The position numbers were made by a program, and so were the translations under genes. The notes under the pieces were generated by a model. The model had not been told where the DNA came from, did no database searches, and worked only from the letters and a program-made list of their open reading frames with translations. Positions 40,232-47,806 of a DNA stretch of 64,000 nucleotides are shown here, in pieces (the first letter of the stretch is position 1; the number at the start of each line of letters is the position of its first letter). The stretch is from a virus. The stretch lies in the IMG/VR virus record IMGVR_UViG_3300043827_000628, positions 27,350 through 91,349 of that record; one strand, written 5' to 3'.

Positions 40232-40972
40232 ATGAATATTGAATTTAATCTTCAATTAAAAGAAAAAATCAAAAGAGAAGCTTTAAAAAATTCGCCCTAT
40301 GAATCTTGTGGTTTTATTTATTTAGATAAACAGACTTTAAAATTTGAAGTTTTTCCATGTAAAAATGTAGCTTCCAATAAAATGAATATGTTTTCTATCT
40401 CACCTCAACAATATATTGCATGTAGTTCTTTAGGGGAAATTACCTCCTGTTATCATTCTCATACGAATGACAATTTAGACTTTAGTGAAATAGATAAGGA
40501 AAATAGTAATAAATATAATATGCATTACATATTATATAATACAAAAAAAGATATATTCAATTTTTACAGTCCAAATTCAGAAAAAAATCCATATATTGGA
40601 AGGCCATTTATCCTAGGAATTTCAGATTGTTTTACATTAATGAAAGACTACGCGCAAAAAGAAAGAAATGTACTTTTAAATTTTCCAAAATATACAGCTT
40701 ATCCAAAAGATATAAAAGAAATTGGAGCCTTATATGAAAAACATTTTTTAGAAAATGGATTTGTTAAACTAGATAAAAATGTTAAATTAGAGAAAGACGA
40801 TGGTATTATGATGATATTTCCTGCGGTATGCGAAGACTATCCAACTCATGCAGCAGCTTATATAGGAGACAATATAATCTTACATCAGCCTTTAAATTCT
40901 TTTTCTTGTGTAAATATATATGATAATTTCTATAAAAAACATACTAGTTATGTATTAAGGTATAGAGGTTAA
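40232..40972 (+). CDS. Tail assembly protein, lambda gpK-like (JAB/MPN + NlpC/P60)
   Basis: ESCG, HSH...FSEID; GRPF..G..DCF, HAAAYIG...ILHQ. Confidence 0.92.
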   Translation: MNIEFNLQLKEKIKREALKNSPYESCGFIYLDKQTLKFEVFPCKNVASNKMNMFSISPQQYIACSSLGEITSCYHSHTNDNLDFSEIDKENSNKYNMHYILYNTKKDIFNFYSPNSEKNPYIGRPFILGISDCFTLMKDYAQKERNVLLNFPKYTAYPKDIKEIGALYEKHFLENGFVKLDKNVKLEKDDGIMMIFPAVCEDYPTHAAAYIGDNIILHQPLNSFSCVNIYDNFYKKHTSYVLRYRG

Positions 40973-40980
40973 AAAGGCAT

Positions 40981-45200: not shown

Positions 45201-47806
45201 GAAAAAACTCGTACAACTATAACGCTAATTATACTCTAACTAGTAATTCTATCCCAGGCAATTGCCATACTCTAGTATCAAGAATAGGAGATACTATAAC
45301 TTATAATAACTACGCTTATCAATATAGAAATAATTTATCTGAATCTAAGGACATTGGAATTACTTCTTTAACAAACATATCTTTATTAGATATTTTAGGT
45401 GAAGGACCAATAGAAGGTATTGTAAACTATGAAATCAAACCGAGACCCGGGTATCAGAAAGGAGATATAGGATATAAAAATGGGGTTGATTTAGTCAAAT
45501 ATCCAGGTCAAAATTCCTTTATAAGATCTATTTATTGGAATGAAACAGCTCTTGCAGATGATACTTTTCCAAATCCAGGTAGTGTTAATTTTGATTTTAT
45601 TAAGCTAAAATTTGATAATGCCGATTGTGCTCCTCGTCATGCAGATATTACTCAGTTATCCAATATAAGACTAGAAGAAGAGTTTTATTCAAAAAAAGCA
45701 GGAAATGGTATTTATGTCAATCATCTAGAATTTAGAGATCAAAATAATAATCTTTTATCTAGCTTCGCTAAATTACCAAGAAGATTGACTAGCACAAAAA
45801 CTGTAGGCACAAGATTATTTGGTAAACGCAAATTCCAAGATAACACAGAGAGAAGTTATAAAAAATCTATTAATATTTTAACAAAAGATCTTTATGGATT
45901 AAGACTTCATATTAAAGTAATTAGTCTTTTTAAACAAATTGTAGACTTAAGAATTTTTGAAAGCGCAAGTGAAGCGGAATCAAACAGTGAAGGAGGTAGA
46001 ATTGATCGTCAAAGTGTAACTTTTAACATTACATTAAAAAGAATTGATAAAGGTAGTGGATCGGAAGGTTTTATTATTACCCCAATAAATGTAGGAGCAA
46101 ATAAAACATCTTTACCTCTAGTGATAACTGGCAGATTAAATTCTGGTCCGTATATTGAAACATTTGAATGGACAGGTTTGACTACGGTTTCAAATCAAAG
46201 AACAGTTGGATGGGAAATAGAAATAGAACCAACATATACAGAACCAATAGACAATAATGTAGTGTTAAAAACTGGTATAGATTCAATTACAGAAACTTAT
46301 AACGAGCTTTTAATTTTACCTAATACAGCAGCAATTATGACAACATTTGATGCTAGATTTTTTTCAAGTATTCCGCAAAGATCTTACGATACTAGATTAT
46401 TGAAAGTCAAAGTACCATTAAACTATAATCCTTATTCTAAAACTTATGATGGTATCTGGAATGGAGCATTTAAACTTGCGTGGACAGATAATCCCGCCTG
46501 GTGTTTTTATGATCTTTTAACGAACAGAAGATATGGTTTAGGTAAGTATGTAGACCCAAGATATACAGATAAATGGACTTTGTATGAAATAGGAAAATAT
46601 TGTGATCAATTGGTTAGCGATGGAAAAGGAGGTCTTGAGCCAAGATTTACATGCAATATGCTAATCTCAACAAGAGAAGATGCTTATAAAGTTGTAAATG
46701 ATATGGCAAGTATATTTAGAGGTTTAGTATATTACAGTGCAGGGTTAATTATGATTTCTCAAGATAGACCAAAAGATGCAATTTATATATTTAACAATAG
46801 CAATGTCAAAGATGGAGAATTTACATATAGTAATACTAGCAGAAGAGTAAGAAGAAATATTGCGCTTGTAAGATATAATGATAAAGATAATTTTTTTAAA
46901 CCAGCAGTTAAATATGTAGAAAATAGAGAAGGAATTATTAGATATGGTATAAGAGAAACTGAAGTGAGCGCATTTGGTTGCACAAGCGAAGGCCAAGCTG
47001 AACGACTAGGAAAATGGACTTTAATATCTGAGAATTCAGAATCCGAATTAGTGAGTTTTGAAACAAGTTTACCTGCAATGTATTTAAAGCCTGGAGATAT
47101 AGTGTTAATTCAAGATCAAAACAGGCAAAATAAAATTTTGGGTGGTAGAACATACGAATTAAATAAAAATTATGCAATATTAGATGTAAAATATGAAAAT
47201 ATATCTGGATATCTTCCAGTAATTAGCGGTTGTAAATTTAATATATTAACTCCCGCAGGTAATATAGAAATAGGAACTCCTAGTGGTAATTATCTCACAG
47301 ATTTACAAGAGCAACAACAGGCTAACGTATTTAAAGAAAGAGTTTTAAATGATATAGAATTTATGACTACAGAAGGCATGCAATCTGGGATAAATACATC
47401 TGTAATTAGAAGAAAACAGATACAAACAATTAATTATAATATTGAAAATGATGATACTTCTAGTAATTCTTTTGGCGCGTATGTAAGTTTAGAAACAGGA
47501 ATTAATTACAATGGCTATACAAAACTAAGCTTTGGAAGCGCAAGATTAGATGACAAAGAACACACATTGTTGCAAAATACAGTTTGGACTATAGAGCTTG
47601 ATCCAAAAAAATATGATCATACAAAAAGTCCAAGTATATCAGGCAAAAGCAGTGCATCACTTTATCCTGGAGCAAGTCTAGAACCATATATAGATAGAAC
47701 TCAAAAATTTAGGGTACTTGATATCGAAGAGCAAGAAGAATATAGATATAAAATTACAGCACTTCAATATGAGGAATCTAAATATGATATGGGAGATGAT
47801 ATATAA
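42287..47806 (+). CDS. Tail tip hub protein, lambda gpJ-like, with N-terminal Ig-like extension and Hint domain
   Basis: LDILGEGPIEG, WNGAFKLAWTDNPAWCFYDLLTN.RYGLG, EPRFTCN, AFGCTSEGQAERLGKW. Confidence 0.93.
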   Translation: MAKKCKDCDPNKYIEGVAYRGRNGHSFDGVYSYNDVGQPYDSNENPTTDMLANVSDMLDAYNPIFTSKFATGLSDSLNNPLYVKGIDKDRGFWFIWSFIDGIVAYNSPRSSVTAPAIISSGTTTAKLNQNFNFSIQTDKIPSILTYTNFGQFADQDSSDKLRFSKSLTNQSYTQTGENITITLSNNSIFTLGEFVFCKFISGSQNKHDSYQIIGATSTTITIRIPGSLTTSGSVDLYSFKYFNPSSTNNSLLKNKINYVGYYTGFINATLIGTTANYTSKKSLTIKSLSSDGTEPIYVTSNPTIHAFRGNSFVYQITTNLDISQYDVLMSRAQLDIINNLNLTWNSETKVIQGTINPQIDAELKTEAWTFEIRAKRGADVGNRTTFNLNILKGNLNASINFPGVPGAFTPYSLTGTVGKSFNSKLSIHNSNIVGISNLPEGLNFNSSNNLITGTPKHAGVFTSKISASNARGTNQGTIIFTFSPFEENNRPSGTTYPSEIQLLQNSYSVLRNNKITLRLRSKRTRMVSPQPPKPSEEIYFKKINKSEYNYIKQNNFPAPFSANYIYNANSPTVIFSLNSPHNFVVGTYLDVTFQANSSLKAGRFLITSIINNTTVEVNLGDKTSNKSTASETATVSSYVVALNGTDISNISFVPRDSLEAETNFWIYIIDTNTTDAFPIEIEGSYDISSILPAQIDGIGNACFAPQNSEAKGAVSTPFTQEIAVTASSLVKSAWSANPAENIPVISFNPGPNLEHQIIFLSGPLEVQTAFANQTLPKSGVKKYPNGVPTSNGTYTFFIRLFDTCTFNRVTSEFVLFLGTYTPRVGDVYVCTYRATCFTKKMRVNTPKGKINIDKLKIGNEVYAFDEDKNIHISKIIKIIDHNKISQPVFKVKLENGTVLESTLSHQFLDGDGNFKFLGEMKAGEYLFSFGKKVKILSIDQSHMEEVYNFEIDKYHTYIVEDIFVHNGGHAPRKNSYNYNANYTLTSNSIPGNCHTLVSRIGDTITYNNYAYQYRNNLSESKDIGITSLTNISLLDILGEGPIEGIVNYEIKPRPGYQKGDIGYKNGVDLVKYPGQNSFIRSIYWNETALADDTFPNPGSVNFDFIKLKFDNADCAPRHADITQLSNIRLEEEFYSKKAGNGIYVNHLEFRDQNNNLLSSFAKLPRRLTSTKTVGTRLFGKRKFQDNTERSYKKSINILTKDLYGLRLHIKVISLFKQIVDLRIFESASEAESNSEGGRIDRQSVTFNITLKRIDKGSGSEGFIITPINVGANKTSLPLVITGRLNSGPYIETFEWTGLTTVSNQRTVGWEIEIEPTYTEPIDNNVVLKTGIDSITETYNELLILPNTAAIMTTFDARFFSSIPQRSYDTRLLKVKVPLNYNPYSKTYDGIWNGAFKLAWTDNPAWCFYDLLTNRRYGLGKYVDPRYTDKWTLYEIGKYCDQLVSDGKGGLEPRFTCNMLISTREDAYKVVNDMASIFRGLVYYSAGLIMISQDRPKDAIYIFNNSNVKDGEFTYSNTSRRVRRNIALVRYNDKDNFFKPAVKYVENREGIIRYGIRETEVSAFGCTSEGQAERLGKWTLISENSESELVSFETSLPAMYLKPGDIVLIQDQNRQNKILGGRTYELNKNYAILDVKYENISGYLPVISGCKFNILTPAGNIEIGTPSGNYLTDLQEQQQANVFKERVLNDIEFMTTEGMQSGINTSVIRRKQIQTINYNIENDDTSSNSFGAYVSLETGINYNGYTKLSFGSARLDDKEHTLLQNTVWTIELDPKKYDHTKSPSISGKSSASLYPGASLEPYIDRTQKFRVLDIEEQEEYRYKITALQYEESKYDMGDDI
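44792..45184 (+). other. Hint / BIL-type domain in gpJ (131 aa)
   Basis: CFTKKMRVNTP.G...TLSHQF...VYNFEI..YHTYIVEDIFVHN; next residue is Gly. Confidence 0.92.

Follow-up and report, generated by a model that had tools for sequence, protein, structure and literature searches.

Type-A BIL-like Hint domains as optional insertions in linkers of the phage tail-tip proteins gpI and gpJ

Bacteria carry type-A bacterial intein-like (BIL) domains in secreted and toxin proteins. They keep the terminal His-Asn pair, lack a nucleophile at the +1 position and give mainly cleavage products (PMC4031507; PMC7664689). When they ligate their flanks, they do so by aminolysis, in which the amine freed by cyclisation of the terminal Asn attacks the thioester formed at Cys1 (PMC4031507). 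The proteins considered here belong to the tail tip of lambda-type phages. In members of the gpI family, a Gly-rich linker connects a ubiquitin-like (Ubl) head to a C-terminal domain, and the JAB protease of gpK has been predicted to cut at the last Gly of the gpI Ubl domain (Iyer et al., PMC1779556). Cryogenic electron microscopy of lambda revealed that gpI from about residue 101 or 135 onward forms a trimeric plug in the lumen of the tail tip, that the N-terminal domain of gpI is not visible and that virions contain no gpK (PMC11101478, PMC10721106). Here, we analysed a window of 64,000 nt (positions 27,350-91,349) of the IMG/VR virus record IMGVR_UViG_3300043827_000628, a 91-kb fragment, in which a lambda-type tail-tip module carries a Hint domain in each of two adjacent genes, those for gpI and gpJ. 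A comparison with related loci shows that type-A BIL-like cassettes are optional in these essential tail-tip proteins and recur at three linker sites: the boundary between Ubl head and plug in gpI, the boundary between arm and core in gpJ, and the N-terminal leader of gpJ proteins that have no arm. The literature on Hint or intein domains in tail fibre, tail tip or J proteins yielded unrelated inteins only, for example in phiCbK TerL, and the placement of Hint domains in the phage tail proteins gpI and gpJ appears to be undescribed.

The tail tip of this phage has the gene order M-L-K-I-J in common with that of lambda, and genes for a JAB and NlpC/P60 protein, a Ubl-bearing gpI and a gpJ follow one another in this order with homology at the family level. 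The gpI proteins of the two phages also share the Ubl head, the Gly-rich linker, the hydrophobic helices and the C-terminal domain. In contrast, lambda has no Hint domain in gpI or gpJ and no N-terminal arm of 835 amino acids (aa) on J. The two Hint domains of 130 aa (gpI) and 131 aa (gpJ) both score above the gathering cut-off of the Pfam family PT-HINT (PF07591, 27.7 bits; Table 1) and share 35% identity (E 2e-23). Domains of only this size have no room for a homing endonuclease, and the original prediction of an endonuclease-free Hint of about 130 aa in each of two adjacent tail-tip genes was correct. Both Hints have Cys1, a TxxH motif in block B (TPNH in gpI, TLSH in gpJ) and a terminal VHN, and their borders read GAGGGGGGGGNS/CFPAGT...ILVHN/GGGGKGGGGGKGG in gpI and VCTYRAT/CFTKKM...IFVHN/GGHAPRK in gpJ. 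Cys1, the block-B His and the terminal His-Asn are invariant among nine aligned Hints.

The closest solved relative by sequence is the type-A BIL domain of C. thermocellum (PDB 2LWY, E 9.3e-14), which has the block F/G pattern YNF..HTY..VHN in common with the gpI Hint. The gpI Hint was also modelled with AlphaFold2 (AF2; block-mean pLDDT 81-96), and a Foldseek search with this model again ranked 2LWY first (TM score 0.86, rmsd 1.7 Å), followed at lower ranks by BIL2 of the Tetrahymena BUBL protein (6Y75/6TMM, TM score 0.74-0.77) and by phage mini-inteins; the gpJ Hint was assigned by the hidden Markov model (HMM) and its 35% identity to the gpI Hint. Thus, by sequence and, for gpI, by predicted fold, both are endonuclease-free type-A BIL-like domains with intact catalytic residues. 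They share with type-A BILs the Hint fold of about 130 aa with blocks A, B, F and G, the motifs named above, the absence of a homing endonuclease and of Cys, Ser or Thr at +1, and a location in variable regions or linkers (a poly-Gly linker in gpI, the variable linker between arm and core in gpJ) instead of in conserved enzyme motifs. Cleavage is known for type-A BILs, and the likeness of the gpI and gpJ Hints to them is one of sequence and, for gpI, of predicted fold. Unlike type-A BILs, these Hints have phage gpI and gpJ as their hosts and not secreted or polymorphic-toxin proteins of bacteria, their flanks are often poly-Gly, and their presence or absence turns over between near-identical phage alleles. 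Nor is the context that of a pretoxin Hint, as the plug part of gpI or the canonical gpJ lies downstream and no match to a toxin family was found with Pfam, PHROG or the lambda alignments.

In fold, size, Cys1, TxxH and HN, as well as in their sporadic occurrence in phage genes, these Hints also resemble phage mini-inteins such as gp41-1 (PDB 6QAZ), which is the second-best sequence match. Their mini-intein size and scattered presence would suit ordinary inteins that have lost the +1 nucleophile and are heading for deletion. The comparative data largely refute this explanation, which we regard as extremely improbable. Cys, Ser or Thr is found at +1 neither in gpI (29 loci) nor in gpJ (about 20 sequences), which sets these Hints apart from canonical class 1 inteins, including mini-inteins, and it is linkers, rather than conserved catalytic motifs, that they interrupt. 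The F block has an Asn where gp41-1 has an Asp, and the overall best match is a type-A BIL. In addition, the ratio of nonsynonymous to synonymous substitution rates (dN/dS) is 0.14 for the gpI Hint, as compared to 0.16-0.28 for the gpI domains, at a dS of about 1. This ratio and the invariant catalytic residues indicate that the Hints are not decaying, in agreement with the original prediction.

Both insertions can be placed precisely by comparison with lambda. The Ubl domain of gpI aligns with the N-terminal domain of lambda gpI up to IVPRVAGAKSGG, where the protein described here reads VVPVLEGAGGG, and the strands and helices of the AF2 model are consistent with the Ubl assignment. Residues 1-106 form the Ubl domain, followed by a Gly run and then by Cys121; a Ubl domain lies directly upstream of the BIL domain in gpI only. 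From the alignment with lambda gpI and the residues that form the lambda plug, it follows that the Hint lies exactly at the boundary between Ubl head and plug. In gpJ, residues 53-81 past the Hint align with residues 13-40 of lambda J and residues 362-671 past the Hint with residues 196-510 (39% identity, E 7e-67), so that the Hint parts an Ig-rich arm of 835 aa from the canonical N-terminus of J. The arm itself is found in Hint-bearing and Hint-less homologues alike. In other phage groups, gpJ proteins that have no arm carry the Hint at the third site, 11-25 residues from the N-terminus (SGSGG/C...HN/GGGGKGS). A single copy is present in the Gly-rich leader at loci L003-L006, L036 and L066, and two tandem N-terminal Hints are present in the library proteins P0169, P0189 and P0191; P0169, the one of these tandem-Hint proteins that was scanned against Pfam, is a gpJ according to its matches to FNIII-A_GpJ and Phage-tail_3. 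We also considered whether the leader before the N-terminal gpJ Hint might derive from the end of a gpI Ubl domain by gene fusion or a frameshift. This was ruled out by locus L003, where a complete and separate Hint-less gpI of 341 aa is encoded directly upstream of the gpJ with the N-terminal Hint.

A database search identified gpI proteins with a Hint in about 28 clusters at 50-74% identity. In Hint-less gpI proteins (64-69% identity), the Gly/Lys linker runs through the insertion site without a break, and the gpJ relatives comprise 17 proteins with and 20 without a Hint in the same short variable linker. When the Hint HMM was run on all open reading frames (ORFs) of 160 related loci, matches were obtained in gpI and gpJ and nowhere else in the module. 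Hint cassettes in gpI or gpJ were found in dozens of uncultured phage lineages. A tblastn search of INPHARED with gpI, in which gpJ was not searched, found no gpI with a Hint in any isolate phage; the matches covered the Hint region alone and were located in unrelated genes coding for helicases and hypothetical proteins.

The flanking residues behave differently at the two sites. Gly occupies the +1 position in both Hints of this genome, as had been noted originally, and in the gpI Hints of 29/29 loci, where the site is the poly-Gly linker. This does not extend to the gpJ Hint family, in which +1 is G, R, M or I (about 20 sequences) and R, M or I is as frequent as G. The residues before Cys1 of gpI vary as well (NS, QG, SS, SG or GG) and do not form a fixed Gly-Gly end. 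The +1 residues bear on the proposal, made in the original prediction, that the two Hints cooperate as a pair and join parts of gpI and gpJ to each other with Gly-Gly amino termini as acyl acceptors. The underlying chemistry of type-A BILs, that is cleavage at both ends and ligation by attack of an amine, agrees with the literature (PMC4031507), and Gly-Gly does follow both Hints in this genome. However, the comparative data lend no support to cross-ligation or, for gpJ, to a rule based on oligoglycine acceptors, and each Hint occurs without the other: among the close relatives with scorable gpI and gpJ sites, both Hints are present at 15 loci, the gpI Hint alone at 10 and the gpJ Hint alone at two. 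A pairing of the two Hints is also not reflected in their phylogeny. The clades of the Hint tree are specific for the site, with support values of 98 for gpI type 1, 100 for gpI type 2, 93 for J and 89 for N-terminal J, and the gpJ Hint of this phage falls in the J-site clade; the tree gives no sign of an exchange between the gpI and gpJ sites or of co-evolution. As the presence of the Hint moreover conflicts with the trees of both host proteins, we consider a paired system very unlikely.

The same trees speak against a domesticated function, which had been proposed along with the pairing. In the tree of the gpI exteins, the Hint state requires at least five changes, and a bearer of a type-2 Hint is sister to Hint-less alleles with a support of 99. 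Well-supported branches of the gpJ core tree force at least four changes of the Hint state. The Hint-less protein P0127 and the Hint-bearing P0124 are sisters; their end branches measure 0.010 and 0.014, and their J cores are about 98% identical. Several substitutions between these two proteins are clustered around the Hint site, and this suggests that the difference is due to a short recombination tract. Scoring of the homologues thus agreed with the earlier view in that Cys, Ser and Thr are absent from +1 and the linker sites recur, and departed from it in that the Hints are optional. Since they are optional and their distribution disagrees with the gpI and gpJ trees, domestication is not supported.

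We propose that each Hint is probably an optional type-A BIL cassette, borne by recombination and inserted in a flexible linker, which would excise itself in cis and act without the other. The known chemistry of type-A BILs leads us to infer that the gpI and gpJ Hints would undergo cleavage or splicing, and the ratio between the two would likewise follow from that analogy. Cys1 would turn the upstream peptide bond into a thioester, and cyclisation of the terminal Asn would cut the downstream bond. In the next step, either hydrolysis of the thioester would leave the flanks separate, or the +1 residue, with its alpha-amine now free, would attack the thioester and so rejoin them. Because the cut lies at the boundary between Ubl head and plug, any outcome in gpI, cleavage or re-ligation, would yield a usable plug fragment. 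The cassettes would be spread and lost by recombination between related phages and not by homing, they would reside at sites that tolerate an insertion or even a break of the chain, and they would be kept active by the damage that an inactive copy would do to an essential tail protein. Several points weigh against this proposal. Cys1 and TxxH of the gpI Hint are strictly conserved even though, by prediction, the JAB protease would free the Ubl domain in any case, which hints at a need for thioester chemistry beyond simple removal. In gpJ, dominant cleavage would strip the conserved arm from the virion unless the arm is held non-covalently, and its conservation may mean that efficient ligation, non-covalent retention or a function of cleavage is required there. 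In addition, with no homing endonuclease, a long persistence of the cassettes needs either recombination together with the cost of a dead copy or a benefit to the phage.

One might speculate that the Hints were co-opted as built-in proteases that determine when, in the course of tail-tip assembly, the Ubl head is freed from the plug and the Ig arm from the gpJ core, so that their bearers gain fitness. The insertion sites correspond to functional boundaries, namely Ubl/plug in gpI and arm/canonical N-terminus in gpJ, the third site close to the N-terminus of arm-less gpJ recurs in many lineages, purifying selection on the Hint is strong, and a long-standing Hint clade of its own exists at each site, all of which would be expected of such an adaptive maturation switch. 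On the other hand, close relatives manage without a Hint and linkers simply tolerate insertions. The predicted Ubl-releasing protease, the gpK JAB, has also not been replaced, as its JAMM motif is kept in 29/29 loci with a Hint-bearing gpI, and we regard a switch as rather unlikely. A role of the Hint as a substitute for the gpK JAB is ruled out by the same intact motif. The gpK-like protein of this phage has Glu24 and the exact JAMM motif HSHTNDNLDFSEID (HxHx7Sx2D, residues 75-88), and its metal motif is thus intact, as originally stated.

A further possibility is suggested by the BUBL protein of Tetrahymena thermophila, in which BIL2 is flanked by Ubl domains and for which Lys isopeptide bonds and an ATP-free dispensing of Ubl domains have been reported (PMC8616854). 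BUBL and gpI have in common a Ubl domain directly upstream of a BIL domain without the canonical +1 nucleophile, and lysines close downstream. In a similar manner, the gpI Hint could hold the Ubl head as a thioester and pass it to a lysine without E1, E2 or ATP; the acceptor could be located in the adjacent GGGGK repeats of gpI or on another tail-tip protein, and the gpK JAB would act as the isopeptidase. The order of Ubl, poly-Gly, BIL and Lys-containing Gly linker in gpI, beside a gene for a JAMM protease, would suit such a reaction, as would the strict conservation of Cys1 and the presence of BIL2 among the top fold matches. If true, gpI and gpK would constitute a self-contained ubiquitin-like modification cycle in phage tail assembly. 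However, the closest relative of the gpI Hint is 2LWY and not BIL2, to which the identity is 21-22%, the same Hint family occupies gpJ sites that have no Ubl domain, and the residues preceding Cys1 vary instead of forming a fixed Gly-Gly end. Close relatives share the Ubl domain, the linker and the JAB and have no Hint. Whereas a second Ubl domain follows BIL2 in BUBL, the AF2 model and the lambda alignment place membrane-like hydrophobic helices and the plug-forming domain after the gpI Hint, and no second (acceptor) Ubl was found there. Isopeptide formation has been reported for BUBL, and the comparison made here is one of layout; on balance, we deem a BUBL-like transfer improbable and continue to favour self-excising cassettes.

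With a limit of E <=0.001, a profile built from the gpI and gpJ Hints matched 43,992 proteins, of which 211 remained at E <=1e-30. The nearest matches include N-terminal gpJ Hints, tandem arrays of Hints and signal-peptide proteins that end in a Hint. Within this nearest group, Gly is the commonest residue at -1 (about half of the full-length copies), and Lys is dominant at +1 with Gly as a distant second. The strongest matches to the tail-tip profile are tandem-array proteins with 3-7 Hints connected by HN/KG(G)/C joints (RGGGG/CF...VHN/KG/CF...), as in P0165, P0166, P0186, P0170 and P0176. A Tim44-like domain follows the array in P0165, P0166 and P0186, and a hydrophobic segment is visible in P0170. 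The signal-peptide proteins P0211 and P0223 end in a Hint and a GGKGK tail of about 13-16 aa; this layout is Hedgehog-like, and only N-terminal release or transfer would matter in it.

The natural and closely matched pairs of tail proteins with and without a Hint could be used to study nucleophile-free Hint chemistry in its native context, and they bear on the unsettled fate of the ubiquitin-like head of gpI and on the role of the gpK JAB. Small tags that cleave or ligate themselves between Gly flanks could also be derived from such Hints. With regard to annotation, the mature gpI and gpJ proteins of these phages probably differ from the translated ORFs.

Table 1. Genes and domains of the tail-tip module (coordinates refer to the window)
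Feature	Coordinates	Strand	Matches
gpM-like distal tail protein	37294..37848	+	PF05939 Phage_min_tail, E 1.3e-20; phrog_14
gpL-like hub protein, 790 aa, large internal insertion	37858..40230	+	PF05100 Phage_tail_L, E 1.4e-27; phrog_18
gpK-like protein P0001, JAB (JAMM) metalloprotease and NlpC/P60 cysteine peptidase	40232..40972	+	PF14464, residues 9-107; PF00877, residues 124-242
gpI-like protein P0002, 434 aa	40981..42285	+	
gpI Ubl (beta-grasp) N-terminal domain, residues 1-106, end VPVLEGAG	40981..41298	+	phrog_32 tail assembly protein, residues 1-114
N-flank of gpI Hint, GAGGGGGGGGNS, part of poly-Gly linker	41305..41340	+	
gpI Hint, type-A BIL-like, Cys121-Asn250, 130 aa	41341..41730	+	PT-HINT, 42.9 bits
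C-flank of gpI Hint, (GGGGKG)x2 from an 18-nt unit duplicated exactly in tandem	41731..41766	+	
gpI hydrophobic helices and C-terminal plug-forming domain	41767..42285	+	aligns with lambda gpI ~100-223; phrog_4554 at 299-370
gpJ-like protein P0003, 1839 aa	42287..47806	+	
gpJ N-terminal arm, 835 aa, Ig-like domains, end GDVYVCTYRAT	42287..44791	+	He_PIG PF05345 at 411-481
gpJ Hint, type-A BIL-like, Cys836-Asn966, 131 aa	44792..45184	+	PT-HINT, 28.5 bits
Linker and canonical gpJ (hub domains, Phage-tail_3)	45185..47806	+	PF13550; phrog_31

According to Pfam and PHROG, the tail-tip module is encoded on the + strand at 37294-50922. Its gpL-like protein is much longer than the lambda protein of 232 aa, and the matches to PF05100 and phrog_18 are each split over two stretches (best matches at residues 531-584 and 16-176, respectively). 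The insertion in this protein comprises about 350 aa and has a weak match to H_lectin at residues 330-377; an H_lectin domain is also present in a protein of 1808 aa encoded on the minus strand (27543-32969). Directly after gpJ follows an ORF of 1038 aa (47806-50922) with no Pfam or PHROG match, which may code for a fibre or receptor-binding protein. The tape measure protein of 3181 aa is encoded on the minus strand (50919-60464) and has PhageMin_Tail and a glucosaminidase domain (GH73-type, residues 2473-2605); its gene is convergent to the M-L-K-I-J module and not located upstream of it. The 27 kb before the window (record positions 1-27400; L164, L165) code for TerL, PhoH, a protein of the GMP-reductase/IMPDH family, an ERCC4 nuclease and two large DUF7483 proteins, one of them with SPRY. 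The record is labelled 'provirus', yet these upstream 27 kb also consist of phage genes and there is no host flank, and the source record looks like a fragment of a large phage genome.

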